Positions 2,226 through 52,966 of a DNA stretch of 57,087 nt are shown one piece after another. Each line of letters starts with the position of its first letter. The first letter of the stretch is position 1. The position numbers and the translations under genes are program-made. This DNA comes from a virus (Duplodnaviria; Heunggongvirae; Uroviricota; Caudoviricetes). Location of the stretch: positions 1-57,087 of IMG/VR virus record IMGVR_UViG_2561511241_000005, one strand, 5' to 3'. The notes under the pieces were generated by a model that saw only the letters and a list, made by a program, of their open reading frames with translations, did not search any database and was not told the DNA's origin.

Positions 2226-2657
2226 TCATTGCCCCCAGCGTTTTATGAATTCCTCGTTTAATTTCGTATCACCCGACCATTGAACATCATGTTCAGCGCC
2301 GAACGAGTAAATCAATTCGATCAGTTCACTGAATTCTGATTTACTCATTCGACTTGTTGACGTTCCCAATACAACGAAGCCGGATTTATCCAGGTTAGGG
2401 ACGACGCCATATTTCTTAAGTCCGGCAGTGAATACCGCTTTCCAGTCTTCCGGTGACAGCTTTTTACCGTACCAATTAACCTGATCGCTAATGTCGGTTA
2501 ACAGCGCCCAAAGCAACGCATTTTGGCTTAGCGAGCGGGTTTTCTCCTGGATGGTAATTATCAGCGGGCTTTTGCTATCAGGCTGGATCTCTCTTATCTG
2601 CCTGATAGCATTTTCTTTCACGGCGTCGTTTACTATCTCAAATCTAATTTGCCTCAT
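2226..2657 (-). CDS. ninB: NinB-family recombination protein
   Basis: 143 aa; motif ...PLIITIQEKTRSLSQNALLWALLTDISDQVNWYGKK... resembles lambda NinB. Confidence 0.75.
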   Translation of the reverse strand: MRQIRFEIVNDAVKENAIRQIREIQPDSKSPLIITIQEKTRSLSQNALLWALLTDISDQVNWYGKKLSPEDWKAVFTAGLKKYGVVPNLDKSGFVVLGTSTSRMSKSEFSELIELIYSFGAEHDVQWSGDTKLNEEFIKRWGQ

Positions 2658-2851
2658 AATACACCGTTGCTATTTTTCCATTGTGCCCGTGCGTACATAA
2701 TCGCCTGCAAAGAAATTAGCCGCGAGCTTGTCATGAAAGCGCCTTTTAAATATTTCATGTCAACCGTGACAGGTTTATCAGGATCATCGCCGCGCATGTA
2801 TTCAGCAATAGTGCTTAAATCCTCCACGGTTAACTCCAAATCCTTGTTCAT
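2654..2851 (-). CDS. hypothetical protein
   Basis: 65 aa ORF, ATGA overlap with ninB start. Confidence 0.45.
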   Translation of the reverse strand: MNKDLELTVEDLSTIAEYMRGDDPDKPVTVDMKYLKGAFMTSSRLISLQAIMYARAQWKNSNGVL

Positions 2852-2860
2852 GATTCCCCC

Positions 2861-3067
2861 TTACACAATCCGCATTGTGTTTCGTAATTCACCACGCAGC
2901 GCCAGTAATGCATCGCGCATTGGCACGAAAACCCGGTTAAATTTTACGTGTTTATATTTCCGCATTAGTGGCGGTGTATACACCATTGCGTCGCATACTT
3001 CCCACGGATAATAAACACGCGTATCATCAACAAACGTTTCAACTGAATAAAAGATTACTCGTCTCAT
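2861..3067 (-). CDS. hypothetical protein
   Basis: 68 aa ORF in operon context. Confidence 0.45.
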   Translation of the reverse strand: MRRVIFYSVETFVDDTRVYYPWEVCDAMVYTPPLMRKYKHVKFNRVFVPMRDALLALRGELRNTMRIV

Positions 3068-3621
3068 AATTCTAACACCGTTTCCTCGTTAAGTTTTTCA
3101 ATCTCAAATACTGGTTTATCAGGTAGCAGGCCGTTATTTTTCCGGTATTCGTTCAGGCGGCTGTCAAAGTCAAACGCAAGATCATTAGCGTGACCAAAGC
3201 GACCAGGTTTAAACAGTGAGTAAAAATTAAGGCCGTGTTTATTGGTATCTATGCAAAGTGTTTCATCCAGTACCATTAAACGCAGCGTGCGCGAAAGATA
3301 ATTCCACGGAATACCAGTTTCCGCGCTAATGTCACGCATACGCTTTTTAACGCTGTAGTCACTAAATAATGCAGCCACACGATCGCGCCGTTGTGCATAC
3401 AAATATTTAATTCGATACCCCAATAAGCGGCGGCGCGGTCCGAAATATGTATATACACGCTCGACAATACCAGTATCAATCAAGTGTTTAATTGTCTCAG
3501 GCAAACATCCGGCTTCGTCATATTCCGCTGATAATCCGGTTTTCTGGCGTAGCTGGTGCATTGTTGCGATGCCGTCCAGTTCAAGGATATTGATAACTTT
3601 TGTTTCAAGTTCAATGCTCAT
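3064..3621 (-). CDS. hypothetical protein
   Basis: ATG at 3619-3621 preceded by GAGG RBS (MSIELETK...); track start at 3657 is GTG. Confidence 0.55.
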   Translation of the reverse strand: MSIELETKVINILELDGIATMHQLRQKTGLSAEYDEAGCLPETIKHLIDTGIVERVYTYFGPRRRLLGYRIKYLYAQRRDRVAALFSDYSVKKRMRDISAETGIPWNYLSRTLRLMVLDETLCIDTNKHGLNFYSLFKPGRFGHANDLAFDFDSRLNEYRKNNGLLPDKPVFEIEKLNEETVLEL

Positions 3622-44607: not shown

Positions 44608-45312
44608 ATGCGCAATATACCTACAGAGATGATTATTGATTCCGTGGACGCTGGTGTGGGCGCGGTGATTGACTTGTTCGAACTGGACTTGTCGCCCCTG
44701 GGTGGCGAGGTTATCCGCTTCCATTCCGGCGCGAATGGCTATTACGGCCCGGTTATCTGGAAGGGGGTAGCTTACAACAGCTACCCGATCGAGGCCACTG
44801 GCTTCGAAATGAAAAACGAAGGCGTTTATTCTCGGCCTCAAATGGTTGTAGCCAATATCGGCGGACTCATTACTGGGATGAATAACGATTTCAACGACCT
44901 AAGAGGCATGAAGGTTACACGCCGCCAGGTGGAAGTAAAATACCTGGACGCTGTTAACTTCCCTAACGGCAATCCAGATGCAGATCCATCTATTGAGGCT
45001 GTATCTTTTTACGTCGTTGAAGCAATGAGCGAGGAAACAGCGGATCAGGTGCAATATGAGCTGTCAACTCCAATTGATGCTGACAAGGCCGTTATCCCTG
45101 GGCGCACCATCCTTGCTGACGTTTGCCAGTGGCAATACAGAGGCGACGGTTGTATGTACGCTGGCGGACCAGTAGCAAACGATAAAGACGAGCCGACAAG
45201 CGATCCTAAAGCCGACAGATGCAGCCACCGCTTGAGCGGTTGTCGTTTACGTTTCCCGCGTCCAAATCCGTTACCAATTTCCTGTTTCCCTGGTTCCAGC
45301 AAGGTAGGTTAA
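44608..45312 (+). CDS. Minor tail protein L (lambda gpL-like)
   Basis: 234 aa; conserved CQWQYRGDGCMY cysteine cluster as in lambda L. Confidence 0.85.
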   Translation: MRNIPTEMIIDSVDAGVGAVIDLFELDLSPLGGEVIRFHSGANGYYGPVIWKGVAYNSYPIEATGFEMKNEGVYSRPQMVVANIGGLITGMNNDFNDLRGMKVTRRQVEVKYLDAVNFPNGNPDADPSIEAVSFYVVEAMSEETADQVQYELSTPIDADKAVIPGRTILADVCQWQYRGDGCMYAGGPVANDKDEPTSDPKADRCSHRLSGCRLRFPRPNPLPISCFPGSSKVG

Positions 45313-45314
45313 TC

Positions 45315-46046
45315 ATGGTAATGGAAGACAAAATGTTGCGTTATGCCGCCGCGCATCCGTTTGAAGAAGTTTGCGGACTGGTGATAGATAACGAATATTT
45401 TTACCCTTGCGCTAACGTGTCTGAAACGCCATACAACAGCTTTAAAATTTCGCCTGACGATTACATCAAAGCTGACGAATTGGGCGTTATAACCGCCGTT
45501 TTTCACTCTCACGTTAATGATATTCCTGTATTGTCGGCACGGGATCGACAACAGCAAGTTATTTCAGGGCTACCCTGGATTTTGTATTCAGGCGGCAAGA
45601 TAAGGAAATTCCGTCCGGTAGCGCACCTGTTAGGCAGAAAATTTGAGCACGGAAAAACAGACTGCTACGCGCTTTTCCGCGACGCCTATCACCTTTGCGG
45701 CGTGGATCTGCCTGACTTCGAGCGCCTTGATGGGTGGTGGTTGCGTGGTGAAAACCTGTATTTAAAAAACTTGCCGCTAAACGGGTTTTATCAGGTTGAC
45801 GCGCGAAGCATCAAGCCAGGTGACGTAATAATCAGGCAGCCGTTCAAAGGTGCTGACCCATGCCACGCGATGATTTACCTGGGCGATAACACTGTTTTGC
45901 ATCATGACAATGCCGGACTGCTAAGCCGCCGCGAGCAAATGCGCCCCGCTTATGTTCGACAAACGAATTCAATATGGAGATCTGATAAATGCTCAAATTT
46001 AGATTTACGGGCAATCTTCGAAGATATTACAGCAAAGTGTGTTTAA
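45315..46046 (+). CDS. Tail assembly protein K (JAB/MPN plus NlpC/P60-like)
   Basis: ATG 45315; HSHVNDIPVLSARD JAMM motif; followed by overlapping I-like gene. Confidence 0.85.
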   Translation: MVMEDKMLRYAAAHPFEEVCGLVIDNEYFYPCANVSETPYNSFKISPDDYIKADELGVITAVFHSHVNDIPVLSARDRQQQVISGLPWILYSGGKIRKFRPVAHLLGRKFEHGKTDCYALFRDAYHLCGVDLPDFERLDGWWLRGENLYLKNLPLNGFYQVDARSIKPGDVIIRQPFKGADPCHAMIYLGDNTVLHHDNAGLLSRREQMRPAYVRQTNSIWRSDKCSNLDLRAIFEDITAKCV

Positions 46047-46519
46047 ACGTTGAAACGCCAGCGCAAGGACTTCGCTTATTGACCTCACAGAATCAGGAAT
46101 TCAAGAAGGCGTTTTTAAATACCCCATTGCGCTTGCGAATTGCCGGAAAAGATTATGACGAAAAGACCGCGCCCGCAGCGGTTAACAGTAAATACCCTGA
46201 CGGGACTACTGTCATTGTTGCGCCAGTGGTGGAAGGCGGTATTGCAGGAATTGGCGTTGTAGGCTGGATTTTGATCGGTGTTTCGGTTGTTAGCGTTGCG
46301 TTCTCGATCTTTATGTCTCGCAACATGAAGATAAAAACATCAGCAGAAAGCGCACAAGATAACACCATATCTAATAACACCTACACCAGCGTTGAAAACA
46401 AGGTAGGCCAGGGTAGACCAGTGCCGATCCTATTGGGTGAAATGAAAATAGGTTCAAACGTCGGATCGTTAGGCATAGACACAAGTAATAACAAAGACGC
46501 CTTAGACGTTGTAAGTTAA
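45989..46519 (+). CDS. Tail assembly protein I (lambda gpI-like)
   Basis: 176 aa; RIAGKD and QGRPVPILLGEMKIGS resemble lambda I; overlaps K as in lambda. Confidence 0.8.
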   Translation: MLKFRFTGNLRRYYSKVCLNVETPAQGLRLLTSQNQEFKKAFLNTPLRLRIAGKDYDEKTAPAAVNSKYPDGTTVIVAPVVEGGIAGIGVVGWILIGVSVVSVAFSIFMSRNMKIKTSAESAQDNTISNNTYTSVENKVGQGRPVPILLGEMKIGSNVGSLGIDTSNNKDALDVVS

Positions 46520-46533
46520 CAGGAGAAAAGGCC

Positions 46534-49500
46534 ATGAGTAGCGGCGGCGGCAAAGCCAAAACACCAACATTATTAAACGATAACCTGTATCATAAACAGT
46601 TTTATCGTGTTTTAGACATTCTCAGCGAGGGGCCGATATACGGCCCGGTAAACCAGAAAGCGCCATTAAACAGCGTAATGCTTAATGACACACCTGTAAC
46701 TGACGCGAACGGAAATACATCAATCCCGGGGATTAGTATAGCCTGGCGCAATGGCACGGCTGACCAATCGCCGATTAATGGTTTTAACGCTATCGAATCA
46801 ACAGTTATTGTCAACGCAAAGGTAACTCACGATACGCCAATAATCAGGACTGTTTCAGATCCAAACGTTAACCGCGTAAGGCTGAATGTTGGCGTTGATG
46901 CTCTCGTTCAGTCAGATGATAAGGGCAATCAATATAACACGTCAGTCATGTTAATGGTTGATGTTAAGCCATCATCATCATCTACGTGGTCGCTGGTTAA
47001 AAACATTACAATCGGGCCTGGTAAACAGAGTGGTGAATACCTTGAAGCTCACGTTATCAACGCGCCGGATGAAAAGCCGTTTGATATTCGCGTTCGTCGC
47101 GTAACGCCAGACAGCAAAAGCGATCTTCTTCGTAATGATACGCGGTGGAGCAGTTACAGCGAGATAATCGACGATAACCTGTCTTACCCTCATACCGCTG
47201 TAGCTGGCGCGGTAATTGACCATGACCAGTATACTGATACTCCTACCCGCACCTATCACCTGCGTGGGCTGATTGTTGATGTGCCGGACAACTATAACCC
47301 TGAAACGCGCGCGTATTCCGGTTTATGGCTTGGTGGCTTTAAAAAAGCGTATACCAATAACCCTGCATGGCTTTTCCGGTATCTGGTTAAAAATGAACGT
47401 TTCGGACTTGCTCGCCACGCTGGTTACATTGACGTTGACGACGGCGCATTATATACGCTTTCTCAATACTGTGACCAGTTGGTTGATGATGGCTACGGTG
47501 GCCTTGAGCCTCGCATGACGCTTAACGCTTACATCACAGAGCAAATGAGCGCACGCGACTTACTGGACAATATCGCCGGGATGTTCAGGGGTATCGCATT
47601 ATGGGACGGGCAACGCCTTACCGTGATGATTGATGCACCACAAGACCCGATCGCCACCATTACAAATGCAAACGTCGTTGATGGCGAGTTTACTCGTTCA
47701 AGTATCGCCCGCGCAGAATGCTACAACGCAGTGATCGTATCATGGACTGACCCGGAAAACGGATGGGAGCAATCAAAAGAGTATGTGGCAGACGATGAGC
47801 TGATCGCCCGTGATGGTTACAACGAAACCACGTTAGAGGCGTTCGGGTGCACATCACGCGGGCAAGCATACCGCGCGGGCAAGTGGCTGATAGAAACAGC
47901 AAAACGCGAGCCGTCAAAATTCACGTTTAAAATGGCCCGTGACGCGATTCACTTTACGCCAGGGGATATTATCGAGATACTCGACAATAACCGCGCAGGC
48001 GCTCGTTTAGGCGGTCGCATCGTGGCGAACAATGGCAAGGTGATAACGGTCGATAAGGTTGATTCGGAATACATCACCGCAGGCGATACCATTAGTTTGC
48101 TTGATAGTGATGGCAAATTTAAGAAACACCAGATCACCGGGGTGAGCGGAAACAAAATCACACTGGCGGCGGCCCCGTCATGGATTCGAAACGGCACTGT
48201 TTTTGCTGTATCGACTGAATCTGCAAAACCTGTTCTGTGTCGAATTATCAGCGTGGCAGAAACAGAAAATAATAGCGTGTACACCATCGAGGCCGCACAG
48301 CACGACCAAAACAAGCAAGCTGTAGTCGATGAAGGCGCAATCTTTGAGGTCAACAACGACACGCTTAATCACTTCCGCGTGCCGAACATTGAAAACCTGA
48401 AGGTGTTAAATGTTGGTTCTGAAACTGTTCAATGTCGCGCTACATGGGAAACACAGACGACAACGCATCGCCTGACCTTTGAGATCCGCGTATATAACGA
48501 CGAAGGCCGCGTGGTGGCAGCTTATGAAACAACGAATTACCGCTATGATTTTTATGGCCTCGACGCTGGCAGCTACACGCTTGGTATTCGCGGGCGTAAT
48601 GACACTGGCATGAAGGGTGCGGAAAGTATTGTGGATCTGGTTATTGGTGCGCCAGCGGCCCCGATTGGAGTCAATTGGGTTTCCGGCGTCTTCCAGGCAA
48701 CGGTATATCCGATCAGCAAAACAACCCTGACCACTGATACAGCATACGAGTTTTATTACTCAGGTGAAAACCAGATCACAGACCCATCAAAAGTAACCAC
48801 GCTGGCGCAATTCACCGGGCGCGGATACCAATGGACTTTTGGCGGCATGAACACGGGCCATAAATATTACGTTTATGTGCGCACGCGTAACGCTTTCGGT
48901 GTGTCAGACTTCGTTGAGGCATCAGGCAAACCTACAGAAAACTTCGACGAAATCAGCGACTACGTGATGAAGGATGTCATGGAGTCAGAACAGTTTAAGG
49001 ACATGATTGGCGATATTAAAGATCTTGGCGACCGTGCCGACCTTATCGAAAGCGCTACCAATGACCTTAAGACTGCTACTGACAACCTCAAAACTGCAAC
49101 TGATAACCTGACAAACATCACTGACGAATTGAGGGTTGACACGGACAACCTGACAAACATCACTGACGAATTGAGGACTGATACGGACGGCCTAATCACA
49201 GAAACTGGGGCCATAAAAGCTGACACGGACACACTGAAAAAAGAAACGGAAGATCTCTATAAAAAGGTTGAGGAAAACGCCGACGATATTGGACAGCATG
49301 AGGCAAGAATAGATTCTCTTGAGGTATCTAGCGAAAAAGTTGGCAGTGAACTGGCGCAAGCAAAAGCAAGCCTGCAAAACGCGTCATTGGCGCTTATCAA
49401 TAACTCACTTGCACAGACCAACACGCGGGTTACTCTCACCGCTCAGTACAAGAAAGGTAGGACAGAAACGAAGGCCGAAATTGACCGCATTGACAACGTT

Positions 49501-51576
49501 ATTGCTGAAGAGAAAAAGGCAACGGCTGAATCACTGAAAACCATCACGGCAGAAATGAACACGATGGATTCTAACCTCAAAGGTCAGATCTCAAACGTGG
49601 AACACGCAGTGGCTGACGAGGCCAGCGCCCGCGCTGAAGCCATTAACGGTGTGAATGCTTCAATAGGCAATCTCGACAAGAAAACCGACGCCAGCATCAA
49701 TAGACTTGATCAAGCTATTGCAGACGAAACGAACGCCCGCACACAGGCAGTCAGTGACGTTAACGCGAGTATCTCATCGCTCGACAAGAAAACAGACGCC
49801 AGCGTTAAACGCTTGGATCAAGCAATAGCAGACGAAACCAGTGCAAGAACTGAAGCTATCAGCAGTGTTAACGCCTCAATAAACAGCATTGACACTAAGG
49901 TTACAAGCAACGTAACACGTATTGATAAAGCCATCGCAGACGAAACGAAGGCACGCACAGACGCGATCAGCGGCGTCAAAGCAAGTATTGACACACTTGA
50001 AGGTAACACCAATTCAGAAGTTAAACGCCTGGACCAGGCAATTTCTGACGAGGCCAGCGCACGCAGCCAGGCGGTGAGCGATGTTAAAGCGTCAATAAGC
50101 AATCTTGAAAGCAAAACTGACGCAAGTGTTTCCCGTCTCGACAAGGCTATCGCTGACGAAACACAGGCAAGAAGCGCTGCAATAACAGATGTTAAGGCTG
50201 ATTTGACAACGCTCGAAAACAGCACAAACGCCAGCGTCAAACGACTTGATCAGGCGATTGCCGACGAATCAAGCGCACGCGCTGAAGCAATCTCAGGCAT
50301 TAACGCAGAGATCGGCAGCATTGAAAACAACGTTGACAAAAACAGCGATGATATAAATCAGACCAAAGCAAGCCTGCAAAACGCTTCGATTGCGCTTATT
50401 AATAACTCAATCGCTCAAACCAACACTCGCGTTACCCTTACGGCCCAGTACAAGAAAGGTCGCAAGGAAACAAACGCGCAGATTGATCGTATTGACAGCG
50501 TTATCGCTGAAGAGAAAAAGGCTACAGCCGAAGCAATTGGCGTGGTAAAAGCATCGATCACGGATCTCGACAAGAAAACCAACGCCAGCGTTTCACGTCT
50601 CGATAAGGCCATTGCAGACGAAACCAACGCACGCAGCGAGTCAATCAGCGGTGTTAACGCAAGCATTAACACGCTTGAAAGCAACACAGAATCAGAGGTT
50701 AGCAGACTGGACCAGGCAATTGCTGACGAGGCAAGCGCCAGAGCACAAGCCATCAGTGGCGTGAATGCGTCAATTTCAACCCTTGATGGCAAAGTTACAA
50801 GCAACGTGACCCGTATCGACAAGGCCATCGCTGACGAAACGAAGGCCCGCACTGACGCGATAAGTAGTCTTAACTCATCGCTTACCAGTACGATTAATTC
50901 GAAAGTATCTGAAGTATCCACAGCACTTTCTACGCATGAAGCATCAAGCGCGGAAAAATTCAACCAGATCTCAGCGTCTTTCGAAGCGGTAAACTCAAGC
51001 ATCACAGAATGGTCGCAGACCATGACAACGGCGGACGAGGCATTATCAACCAAAATTGATCAGCTGACAGTGACCGTTAACGGGAACACCACGGCGATCG
51101 AGACAACATCTAAAGCGTTAACCGACTTCAAAGGTAACGTTGATGCGTCATTGTCAATCAAGATTGCCACCGACAACAACGGCATGAAATACGCAACAGG
51201 TATGTCACTTGGCCTGACTGGTAGCGGTACTAACGTTCAATCGCAGTGTATTTTCCTTGTTGACCGCTTCGTGTTAATGACTGCGGCAAACGGCACATAT
51301 ACAACGCCTTTCTATGTGTCTAATGGTGCAATGTATGTGAAAGAAGCGTTTATTAAAGACGCCTCGATCACTAACGCGAAAATAGGTTCATACATCCAGT
51401 CAAATAACTATGTTTCCGGCAGCACTGGCTGGAAACTGGATAAATCAGGGACGTTTGAAAACTATGGCGCGGTAAGTGGCGAAGGTGCAATGAAATTAAC
51501 TAATACCACTATCTCGGTAAAAGACGGCAACGGGCGTTTACGCGTACAAATTGGTAGGATTACAGGATCATGGTAG
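46534..51576 (+). CDS. Central tail fibre / host specificity protein J-like with long repetitive coiled-coil insertion
   Basis: 1680 aa; N-terminal 800 aa align with lambda J (LSEGPIYGPV, FGCTSRGQAYRAGKWL); internal 36-aa repeats. Confidence 0.9.
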   Translation: MSSGGGKAKTPTLLNDNLYHKQFYRVLDILSEGPIYGPVNQKAPLNSVMLNDTPVTDANGNTSIPGISIAWRNGTADQSPINGFNAIESTVIVNAKVTHDTPIIRTVSDPNVNRVRLNVGVDALVQSDDKGNQYNTSVMLMVDVKPSSSSTWSLVKNITIGPGKQSGEYLEAHVINAPDEKPFDIRVRRVTPDSKSDLLRNDTRWSSYSEIIDDNLSYPHTAVAGAVIDHDQYTDTPTRTYHLRGLIVDVPDNYNPETRAYSGLWLGGFKKAYTNNPAWLFRYLVKNERFGLARHAGYIDVDDGALYTLSQYCDQLVDDGYGGLEPRMTLNAYITEQMSARDLLDNIAGMFRGIALWDGQRLTVMIDAPQDPIATITNANVVDGEFTRSSIARAECYNAVIVSWTDPENGWEQSKEYVADDELIARDGYNETTLEAFGCTSRGQAYRAGKWLIETAKREPSKFTFKMARDAIHFTPGDIIEILDNNRAGARLGGRIVANNGKVITVDKVDSEYITAGDTISLLDSDGKFKKHQITGVSGNKITLAAAPSWIRNGTVFAVSTESAKPVLCRIISVAETENNSVYTIEAAQHDQNKQAVVDEGAIFEVNNDTLNHFRVPNIENLKVLNVGSETVQCRATWETQTTTHRLTFEIRVYNDEGRVVAAYETTNYRYDFYGLDAGSYTLGIRGRNDTGMKGAESIVDLVIGAPAAPIGVNWVSGVFQATVYPISKTTLTTDTAYEFYYSGENQITDPSKVTTLAQFTGRGYQWTFGGMNTGHKYYVYVRTRNAFGVSDFVEASGKPTENFDEISDYVMKDVMESEQFKDMIGDIKDLGDRADLIESATNDLKTATDNLKTATDNLTNITDELRVDTDNLTNITDELRTDTDGLITETGAIKADTDTLKKETEDLYKKVEENADDIGQHEARIDSLEVSSEKVGSELAQAKASLQNASLALINNSLAQTNTRVTLTAQYKKGRTETKAEIDRIDNVIAEEKKATAESLKTITAEMNTMDSNLKGQISNVEHAVADEASARAEAINGVNASIGNLDKKTDASINRLDQAIADETNARTQAVSDVNASISSLDKKTDASVKRLDQAIADETSARTEAISSVNASINSIDTKVTSNVTRIDKAIADETKARTDAISGVKASIDTLEGNTNSEVKRLDQAISDEASARSQAVSDVKASISNLESKTDASVSRLDKAIADETQARSAAITDVKADLTTLENSTNASVKRLDQAIADESSARAEAISGINAEIGSIENNVDKNSDDINQTKASLQNASIALINNSIAQTNTRVTLTAQYKKGRKETNAQIDRIDSVIAEEKKATAEAIGVVKASITDLDKKTNASVSRLDKAIADETNARSESISGVNASINTLESNTESEVSRLDQAIADEASARAQAISGVNASISTLDGKVTSNVTRIDKAIADETKARTDAISSLNSSLTSTINSKVSEVSTALSTHEASSAEKFNQISASFEAVNSSITEWSQTMTTADEALSTKIDQLTVTVNGNTTAIETTSKALTDFKGNVDASLSIKIATDNNGMKYATGMSLGLTGSGTNVQSQCIFLVDRFVLMTAANGTYTTPFYVSNGAMYVKEAFIKDASITNAKIGSYIQSNNYVSGSTGWKLDKSGTFENYGAVSGEGAMKLTNTTISVKDGNGRLRVQIGRITGSW
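49105..49188 (+). repeat. 42-bp perfect-to-near-perfect tandem duplication inside J
   Basis: aacctgacaaacatcactgacgaattgagg(g/a)(t/c)tga(c/t)acggac twice. Confidence 0.8.
49577..50890 (+). repeat. Array of about 11 in-frame 108-bp (36-aa) repeats plus a duplicated 170-bp block (49363-49533 and 50364-50532)
   Basis: Repeated LDKKTDASVxRLDQAIADETxARxxAISxVNASIxx units visible in translation and DNA. Confidence 0.8.
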
Positions 51577-51627: not shown

Positions 51628-51939
51628 ATGGCTACTTTCGGCATTGCAACATGGGACGCCAACGGAAACGCTAATAACTATGGGATCAAACCTTCCGTCG
51701 TGGTTGGTTATATTTCCCTATCTTCCGGGCAAGTGTCCGGCACGTATAATTTTACAGTTCCTACAGGATGTAAATTATCTTATGCCATGACGCTTGATCA
51801 TGGCACAACATCAACGACGCGCAGAAAGATCAGCATTTCAGGTGGCACCGTTTCCATTTCCTCAGCAGGGAATACAGTAGGCGCTAATATATGGCCCGCG
51901 TCACAGTGTGAAATTGTTATATTTGCGGAGGTGGCTTAA
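51628..51939 (+). CDS. hypothetical protein, single copy of MATFG domain
   Basis: 103 aa; N-terminus MATFGIATWDANGNAN. Confidence 0.5.
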   Translation: MATFGIATWDANGNANNYGIKPSVVVGYISLSSGQVSGTYNFTVPTGCKLSYAMTLDHGTTSTTRRKISISGGTVSISSAGNTVGANIWPASQCEIVIFAEVA

Positions 51940-52571
51940 TGGCAACTTTTGGCGCTTATCTGCTTTTAAGTAACGGCAATGTATTTGTCACGCCCGACGC
52001 TACGCCTATGTGCCTTTACACAAGACAGCAAATATCTTGTCCATCAACGCAAAACACATCAAAATACATTACAGTCCCAACAAATAAGCCTGTAATGGTA
52101 TTTGTAAAGACAAGTATAGGCGGTGTTACAGCAAGCGTTAGCAGGGCTAACTCTGGACAAATACTTTGCGCTTTTGGTAGAGATGTCAACAATACCTATA
52201 CTGCAACTGTATATGTATTTTCTATTTTTTCTCCCCCCCTCCCCAAATGGGGTATGGCTATATGGAATTCATCGGGTGAGCTTGTTTTGACAAATGAATC
52301 AAGAATATTAACTGACATCATCACGGTGGGTTCTCCGGGTAATGGAGGCGGGATAAATATAGATCAGACACTTTCAGGATCATACGCAATTTGCCCGCAA
52401 TTGTTGGGCGCGGTTGTTGGGCAAGGTTCAGCATCGATTTATGCTGCCGCATACTATAACGGCAGCAAAACAAGGATCTATGGTGTTACGGCTGGTGGCG
52501 TATATAATCCTACTGGCTACATAAACCACGGTAACGCCATAACCGCCATTAAAACCGATGCCTATGATTAA
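51939..52571 (+). CDS. hypothetical protein with two copies of the MATFG domain and internal T6/C7/C4 homopolymer tracts
   Basis: 210 aa; MATFGAYLLLSNGN... and internal ...WGMAIWNSSGEL...; poly-C at 52231-52244. Confidence 0.5.
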   Translation: MATFGAYLLLSNGNVFVTPDATPMCLYTRQQISCPSTQNTSKYITVPTNKPVMVFVKTSIGGVTASVSRANSGQILCAFGRDVNNTYTATVYVFSIFSPPLPKWGMAIWNSSGELVLTNESRILTDIITVGSPGNGGGINIDQTLSGSYAICPQLLGAVVGQGSASIYAAAYYNGSKTRIYGVTAGGVYNPTGYINHGNAITAIKTDAYD

Positions 52572-52807
52572 TTCAGTTCCGGGCAATCCGTTTTATTGAA
52601 GTGGTCAACGCTTACCCATTGGAAGTTAAACGGATACCCGGCCTTAACCATTTTATGACCGCCAACATCCGCGACACCGAAGACTGCAACCGCATACTCA
52701 TTACCGCCAGTTTGATAAGTTGCCATGCATTCACGTTTCGGCATATCAGCGCAACCAACCAGACCAGCGACCATTGCAGCGATAGCGATATTTTTAAAGC
52801 CTTTCAT
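52568..52807 (-). CDS. Small lipoprotein (possible Cor-like superinfection exclusion protein)
   Basis: ATG 52805-52807 with GGAGGG RBS; signal peptide MKGFKNIAIAAMVAGLVGC with lipobox; opposite strand between J and tail fibre. Confidence 0.55.
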   Translation of the reverse strand: MKGFKNIAIAAMVAGLVGCADMPKRECMATYQTGGNEYAVAVFGVADVGGHKMVKAGYPFNFQWVSVDHFNKTDCPELN

Positions 52808-52966
52808 TGTCTTACCCTCCATTGTTAAGTTGGTTGTAGTATCCATAAACAGCTTTTTAACAACATTGACATAAATCAATAAATACATTTTGTGCGCGTC
52901 AAAAATGTAACATAGATCACAAAATGGTAGAATTATTCCGTTAATTAACATAATGGAGTCATTGCG

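Follow-up and report, generated by a model that had tools for sequence, protein, structure and literature searches.

The central tail fibre of phage lambda, gpJ (PDB 8iyk and 8xcj), contains a series of hub domains and a Phage_Tail_Tip region, and residues 808-998 form its central straight fibre (PMC13455828). We describe here a lambda-J-like central tail fibre gene found in a Caudoviricetes record (IMG/VR IMGVR_UViG_2561511241_000005), of which the whole stretch of 57,087 nucleotides was analysed and is called the window below. Its product, window J, shares the hub domains and the Phage_Tail_Tip region with gpJ, and a long insert of predicted coiled coil begins at the very place of the lambda straight fibre. 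We propose with good confidence that window J carries a very long helical coiled-coil shaft built of in-frame repeats, and that recombination of whole units changes its length.

A second system of the same general plan is the central fibre of the F-type pyocins (PA0641 / PyoF10; PDB 25vf), in which a J-like hub is followed by a long helical shaft and a distal beta-prism, the trimeric state being known for the pyocin. The pyocin fibre and window J have in common a sequence motif and a Glu-Arg core pair, and a region of window J near the prism is predicted as both alpha and beta. The pyocin shaft, however, covers ~165-180 residues with no regular array of 36 amino acids (aa) described, whereas that of window J extends over about 650-700 residues, with 12 units in addition to a heptad zone. 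A fold switch has been observed in the F7 pyocin, to which window J is likened here by sequence and monomer prediction; no comparable switch in lambda was reported by He et al. (PMC12874032). The N-terminus of the side fibre encoded in the window is not detectably homologous to the pyocin side fibre.

The closest counterparts are the J proteins of the mEpimmI coliphages (PMC11893012), which resemble window J in gene order (L-K-I-J), type of unit, block architecture and unit-by-unit correspondence. Window J differs from them in its 8+4 units and its tip of 223 aa, and its gene is followed by two plus-strand open reading frames (ORFs) and a Cor-like lipoprotein gene instead of lipoprotein or DUF6453 genes. 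A 2025 paper (PMC11893012) devotes one sentence to the repeats of the mEpimmI J proteins and does not resolve the 36-aa unit, the segmental duplication or the deletion between mEp021 and mEp515; the architecture of the pyocin shaft was published in 2026. The unit-level anatomy, the segmental duplication, the recombination event between mEp021 and mEp515, and the link between a phage fibre and the pyocin shaft are new here.

Results

Identity of the fibre gene

The gene and its two flanking parts, between which the repeats lie, are the following.

46534..51576, plus strand: J-like central tail fibre gene, 1680 aa (ORF list, translation, Pfam, PHROG, PDB)
46534..49023, plus strand: lambda-J-like hub part, aa 1-~830, with FNIII-A, Phage-tail_3, Ig_J and Ig_J_second (Pfam, PDB)
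51094..51507, plus strand: Phage_Tail_Tip domain, aa 1521-1658, the distal beta part of the fibre (Pfam PF09327, DUF1983, E = 5e-40)

The N-terminal part had been described as lambda-J-like in an earlier reading of the DNA letters (the original prediction), and the domain searches bear this out. Pfam recognizes FNIII-A_GpJ (aa 88-214), Phage-tail_3 (335-492), Ig_J (609-707) and Ig_J_second (709-811), with E-values from 6e-37 to 2e-15, and aa 1-851 match the solved lambda J structure (PDB 8iyk) with E = 9e-183. The PHROGs label of the protein is central tail fibre J. Directly upstream, at 44608-46519, are L (PHROG minor tail protein L), a K-type gene and I (tail assembly protein I), and the order L-K-I-J is also that of the compared relatives. 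The score against the NCBIfam model lambda_TipJ is 709 bits for an exception cutoff of 1950 bits, so that the protein is not the lambda equivalog itself. These similarities support its membership of the lambda TipJ / central tail fibre J family.

Repeat anatomy of the shaft

From the N- to the C-terminus, window J consists of the hub, an acidic heptad zone, a block (A) with seven units, a short linker, a second block (A') with three units, a conserved stretch and the tip. The helical shaft spans ~49045 to ~51120 and thus extends past both sides of the interval 49105-50890 first assigned to the repeats; it has about 650-700 residues and separates the hub, aa 1-~830, from the distal beta tip, aa ~1530-1680. 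Its elements are as follows.

49045..49362, plus strand: acidic heptad zone, aa 838-943, with a period of 7 aa (21 bp) and a net charge of -16
49105..49188, plus strand: 42-bp (14-aa) tandem duplication in two copies, inside the heptad zone (Tandem Repeats Finder, 2.0 copies, 92% matches)
49363..49533, plus strand: block A, covering aa 944-1000, the first of two copies of the 171-bp block (repeat finder), with a predicted helix break at aa 973-979
49579..50334, plus strand: array 1, seven canonical units of 36 aa (108 bp), aa 1016-1267, with a degenerate unit (aa 980-1015) ahead
50365..50535, plus strand: block A', covering aa 1278-1334, the second of these copies (repeat finder), with a predicted helix break at aa 1307-1312
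50581..50904, plus strand: array 2, three canonical units of 36 aa, spanning aa 1350-1457, with a degenerate unit (aa 1314-1349) ahead
50953..51123, plus strand: segment aa 1474-1530, predicted as beta with an alignment and as helix without one, which aligns to part of the fold-switching coiled coil of the pyocin

The heptad zone has Asp or Glu at several core positions, and its autocorrelation is dominated by lags 7, 14, 21 and 28. The 42-bp tandem duplication that had been announced there is indeed present, in frame and with an exact core of 30 bp; Tandem Repeats Finder also detected a 21-bp period just upstream of it and a 108-bp period.

The units of the two arrays are in perfect register, with canonical starts at aa 1016, 1052, 1088, 1124, 1160, 1196 and 1232 in the first and at aa 1350, 1386 and 1422 in the second, and the repeat finder returned families with the same 108-bp spacing. 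Comparison of the protein with itself gave an amino-acid identity at lag 36 of 0.322, as compared to 0.088 ± 0.011 in shuffled sequences (z = 20.6); the periodicity expected from a self-alignment is therefore real. The 36-aa repeats that had been counted as about eleven exist, but the count has to be revised to ten canonical and two degenerate units. Both degenerate units (starting at aa 980 and 1314) overlap the duplicated blocks, and each array is headed by one block copy. The blocks, likewise in frame, 171 nucleotides (nt) each, 81% identical and spaced by 1002 bp, lie within 3 bp of the coordinates initially given for a duplication about 1 kb apart. Units within the window allele are 45-75% identical in DNA, and its longest exact direct repeats are of 30 bp, in the 42-bp duplication, and 20 bp, in the blocks.

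Predicted helical character of the repeats

Structure prediction by AlphaFold was performed with an alignment of 72 sequences and on the single sequence. With the alignment, helices were predicted at residues 934-972, 980-1155, 1161-1306 and 1313-1471, and were interrupted only at aa 973-979, 1156-1160 and 1307-1312, the first and the last of these breaks lying within the blocks. On the single sequence, one helix covered residues 1341-1530, with a predicted local distance difference test (pLDDT) score of 86-95 up to ~aa 1509, then 76, then 58 by aa 1530. In the arrays the hydrophobic periodicity is 3.60 residues, so that 36 residues make 10 turns; the heptad zone gives 3.52. No proline occurs in aa 838-1535. 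Among the 59 distinct units of ten alleles, positions 4, 7, 11, 14, 18, 22, 25, 29, 32 and 36, that is every 3.6 residues, are mostly Val, Leu or Ile, while Glu14 and Arg18 are invariant. In the repeat part of the protein, NCBIfam and Pfam showed weak, sub-threshold similarity only, namely to long helical protein families (SMC, SF-assemblin).

The homology to a solved shaft lies in the distal ~280 residues: aa 1363-1642 of window J match the F2-pyocin tail fibre (PDB 25vf_A) over its residues 912-1187, with E = 3e-33. In that fibre, residues ~907-1084 form a trimeric coiled-coil shaft with a kink at which the side fibres dock, and the distal beta-prism comes next (bioRxiv 10.64898/2026.02.24.707460; PMC13455828; PMC12874032). 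Because the AlphaFold helices, the hydrophobic periodicity, the absence of proline and the homology to the F-pyocin shaft all point in the same direction, these predictions and alignments support the coiled-coil type that had been suspected for the repeats. The repeats are best read, from the aligned sequences, as an enlarged version of the F-pyocin shaft, and by analogy the shaft would be trimeric. A Foldseek search of the monomer model against PDB gave weak matches only, to the SU10 and lambda open-state fibres, with template modelling (TM) scores below 0.25, and was not informative, the model being dominated by long single helices.

We also considered whether the chain folds back on itself into an antiparallel shaft. 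This was judged unlikely: the alleles carry one or two breaks of the block type (mEp515 and mEp010 are examples), and with an even number of segments the tip would face backwards.

Variation in length among relatives

The nearest relatives of the window are the mEpimmI coliphages mEp021, mEp044, mEp554, mEp010, mEp013 and mEp515, the phage MagusPhagus and some E. coli prophages; the DNA of the J gene is 87-90% identical to theirs over 63-84% of its length. A unit profile was applied to ten alleles. Units were always spaced by 36 aa, and their numbers, given as array 1 + array 2, were as follows.

Window: 8+4 units
mEp044, mEp554 and mEp021: 8+5 units each
mEp010: 5+5 units
mEp515 and MagusPhagus: 5 units each
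mEp013: 4+1 units
WCHEC025970: 9+3 units
MIN12: 8+3 units

The ten alleles hence span 5 to 13 units, a comparison of J lengths that the original prediction had proposed, and the nine relatives differ from the window by entire 36-aa or 7-aa units. In the heptad zone the differences are multiples of 7 aa (14 or 35 aa): mEp010 is devoid of exactly one 14-aa copy, the 42-bp element being single there, while mEp013 and MagusPhagus are each 35 aa shorter, at different places.

The clearest case is a clean and recent deletion. The J gene of mEp515 is that of mEp021 minus exactly 1002 bp (334 residues), the two being 100% identical over the 3395 nt before and the 792 nt after. The junction borders a 35-bp exact repeat of mEp021, and the two longest exact direct repeats of the mEp021 shaft (35 and 29 bp) are both spaced by 1002 bp, the size of the deletion. 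Both phages infect E. coli and both require OmpA (PMC11893012). Since both are viable isolates using OmpA, a change of 334 residues in the shaft is tolerated without a change of receptor. The whole-unit differences in the ten alleles, together with the mEp021/mEp515 pair, support the earlier proposal that recombination alters fibre length, and specify that it would do so by whole units.

The window allele itself is more constant. The same protein was found unchanged on at least 24 contigs (49 index blocks), including the complete genome CP002729.1. As its units have diverged, only rare events are expected. The shaft of the window allele is an occasionally recombining structural repeat and not a hypervariable locus; frequent variants within a population are not expected, with the possible exception of a lost 42-bp copy. 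Among future variants, two are the most likely: one that has lost a 14-aa copy and one in which 1002 bp are deleted between the two blocks.

Long arrays were surveyed by a profile search of 1.84 billion representatives. A word-indexed protein search was unfit for this purpose, as it returned no homologue above ~1306 aa although the J protein of mEp044 has 1828 aa. Arrays of at least 10 units are rare, a handful of the 77 matching clusters among the representatives, whereas the unit type is common at 1-5 copies in J-like proteins.

Tip, neighbouring genes and host locus

The tip of window J is short, with 223 aa past the last unit, and ends ...GRITGSW. A protein of 1172 aa designated 'putative tail fiber protein' (PDB 9l9p, chain S) is nearly the same as window J in its C-terminal 143 residues (domain E = 1.4e-43) and has related helical repeats upstream; these are few, with a period of ~33 aa in the printed alignment, and the protein is 500 residues shorter than window J. 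Compared with aa 1536-1680 of window J, the C-terminal domain of 9l9p chain S is almost identical and ends ...RLRVQIGRLTGSW. Such a near-identical tip on a different shaft points, at the sequence level, to an exchange of tips between fibres.

The window comprises a whole prophage, with an integrase at the left end (1-1200) and the host chromosomal gene abgT at the right (55642-57087), which places the attachment site next to abgT. The J gene belongs to an mEpimmI-type prophage beside abgT in E. coli. Two plus-strand ORFs directly follow J: 51628-51939 (103 aa, PHROG 557) and 51939-52571 (210 aa, PHROG 425). Neither has a match in Pfam or NCBIfam. They are absent from this place in the mEp phages and in the two E. 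coli prophages WCHEC025970 and MIN12, which have minus-strand lipoprotein, DUF6453 or hypothetical genes there. They occupy the position at which the F-type pyocins have their separate tip-adhesin genes (PA0642 / PyoF11-12), and may have an analogous role at the tip.

Further downstream, on the minus strand, a gene for a Cor-type phage exclusion lipoprotein occupies 52568-52951 (NCBIfam lamb_exclu_cor, E = 3e-14); its true start is probably internal, gene callers giving 68-79 aa. Cor genes are typical of FhuA-dependent phages. Because of this gene, the receptor of the prophage may be FhuA, unlike the LamB or OmpA of the mEp relatives. The side tail fibre (52967-55492, plus strand, 841 aa) ends in a Peptidase_S74 intramolecular chaperone domain, and over its first ~100 residues it shows homology to the N-terminus of a depolymerase (PDB 7vyv, 7lzj; E = 1e-31) that we take to be a Klebsiella phage enzyme.

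Two observations concern the genes upstream of J. The longest ORF of the K-type C40 peptidase (45219-46046, plus strand, 275 aa) overlaps the end of L by ~90 nt, and annotations of the relatives differ as to its start (243 versus 275 aa). In mEp021 and mEp515, the tail genes I and J are separated by an inserted HNH endonuclease gene (~190 aa); the window and the other relatives do not have it.

2437-3003 of the mEp021 stretch and 2937-3503 of the mEp515 stretch: HNH endonuclease gene

Discussion

We propose that the shaft of window J arose by three layers of in-frame duplication. One would have produced the 7- and 14-aa units of the acidic heptad zone, another would be the tandem amplification of a 36-aa unit with core residues every 3.6 residues, and another a segmental duplication of ~1 kb, from which the second block-plus-array would derive. 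The shaft would keep the receptor-binding tip away from the tail end and, by analogy with the F-type pyocins, would probably also serve as a platform for the side fibres. Shaft length would change through unequal homologous recombination of one unit or block with another, by which whole units are gained or lost while the frame and the tip stay intact. From the residue count alone, at 0.148 nm per residue, the fully extended shaft would be of the order of 95 nm. The analysis shows the anatomy of the repeats, their predicted helices, the homology to a solved coiled-coil shaft and the polymorphism in whole units; the trimeric state, the extended length, the docking of the side fibres and any functional effect of shaft length are inferred.

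Several observations weigh against this proposal. Published electron microscopy of the mEp phages describes ~130-nm tails, with no mention of a long central fibre and no fibre length. The N-terminus of the side fibre resembles the anchor domain of a depolymerase and not the pyocin side fibre, so that the docking analogy is without sequence support; electrostatic docking as in F7 was likewise found unsupported, the N-terminal 100 residues of the side fibre having a net charge of -3 and no homology to the pyocin side fibre. The two AlphaFold runs modelled a monomer, at a mean pLDDT of ~67. Finally, the window allele offers poor substrates for recombination, given exact repeats of at most 30 bp and the divergence of its units, and it is identical in many assemblies.

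The shaft might do more than hold the tip at a distance. It could be, with its 36-aa arrays, a metastable spring, a coiled coil in the virion that turns into a trimeric beta-prism on receptor binding and opens the tail tip; the number of units would then set the stored energy and the size of the prism, not merely the reach. In the F7 pyocin, fibre residues 921-1083 are a coiled coil that becomes a beta-prism on firing, and the same has been predicted for many siphophage fibres (He et al., PMC12874032). It is to this switching segment that residues ~1372-1536 of window J align, and within them residues 1474-1530 are predicted as beta with the alignment and as helix without it, the same deep-versus-shallow signature as was used by the pyocin authors. 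The dual prediction is, however, restricted to ~57 residues downstream of the arrays, while the 36-aa units are helical in both monomer runs. Every unit contains the published pattern SxSxxMxxLxS once reversed (positions 2-12) and once forward (17-27), and aa 830-1530 hold 41 matches as compared to 10 ± 3 in shuffles; but the motif is loose and also expected of an alanine-rich coiled coil, the counts are not independent because the units are mutually homologous, and the spacing of 15 and 21 residues seems unlike that of F7 (~25, inferred from the numbers of the mutated residues). The Glu14/Arg18 core pair, four residues apart, recalls the buried Glu1039-Arg1043 of F7, and alanine makes up 88-96%, and small residues 99%, of positions 12 and 27, which in a coiled coil would probably be exposed. 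The viable, clean 334-residue deletion of mEp515 fits a spacer better than a tuned spring, and lambda and T5 do not switch according to He et al. (PMC12874032). We consider a spring of this kind improbable. That the entire 36-aa array, beyond the ~160 residues adjacent to the tip, acts as a modular element of fold switching in which every unit is a beta-hairpin-in-waiting stored as ten coiled-coil turns, appears distinctly improbable. If it were so, recombination that adds or removes units would adjust how much energy is set free and how large a beta-prism forms when the phage fires, and the fibres, with 5 to 13 units, would constitute a natural series of springs of different length.

Two other explanations concern the DNA of the repeats. 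They could form a contingency locus, in which frequent slippage or recombination generates fibre-length variants in one population for host range or immune evasion. Whole-unit variation among relatives would fit, as would the 42-bp tandem duplication with its 30-bp exact core, but the units are only 45-75% identical, no other exact repeat exceeds 20 bp, and the protein is invariant on its at least 24 contigs. Moreover, receptor use in the group follows the C-terminal tip and not the number of units, mEp021 and mEp515 both using OmpA in spite of their 334-aa difference (PMC11893012). We regard frequent variation of this sort as highly improbable. The repeats might also harbour real genes nested antisense in the fibre gene, a notion that the lengths of the minus-strand ORFs (140 and 212 codons) could suggest.

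49818..50240, minus strand: spurious antisense ORF, 140 aa, whose low-complexity product mirrors the repeats; interrupted in relatives by a stop corresponding to J aa 1167
50415..51053, minus strand: spurious antisense ORF, 212 aa, broken in mEp044 and mEp021 (position of aa 1429) and in mEp554 (aa 1393)

All long minus-strand ORFs of the J gene are, however, in one antisense frame. By codon arithmetic, a stop arises in that frame only where a sense-strand Tyr, His or Gln codon follows one whose last base is a pyrimidine, and there are no Tyr codons in the arrays and three in the whole shaft. The products are mirror images of the repeats and of low complexity, and the open stretches are interrupted at different positions in relatives. 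Antisense genes were rejected on these grounds, their existence being hardly credible, and the view that the ORFs are a by-product of the repeats holds. A helical shaft with occasional exchange of whole units is thus the explanation that we retain.

Taken alone, the window fibre is an ordinary phage fibre, if an unusually long one. Related viable phages, however, carry the same hub and tip on shafts of 5 to 13 units of the same type, which amounts to a natural experiment, and mEp021 and mEp515 are only a clean 334-residue deletion apart. This allele series could test the effect of central-fibre length on adsorption and host range, and whether the conversion of a coiled coil into a beta-prism, as described for the F-type pyocins, operates in true phages and scales with the length of the shaft. 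It also yields a rule for the engineering of fibre length, namely to cut and join at the boundaries of the 36-aa units.

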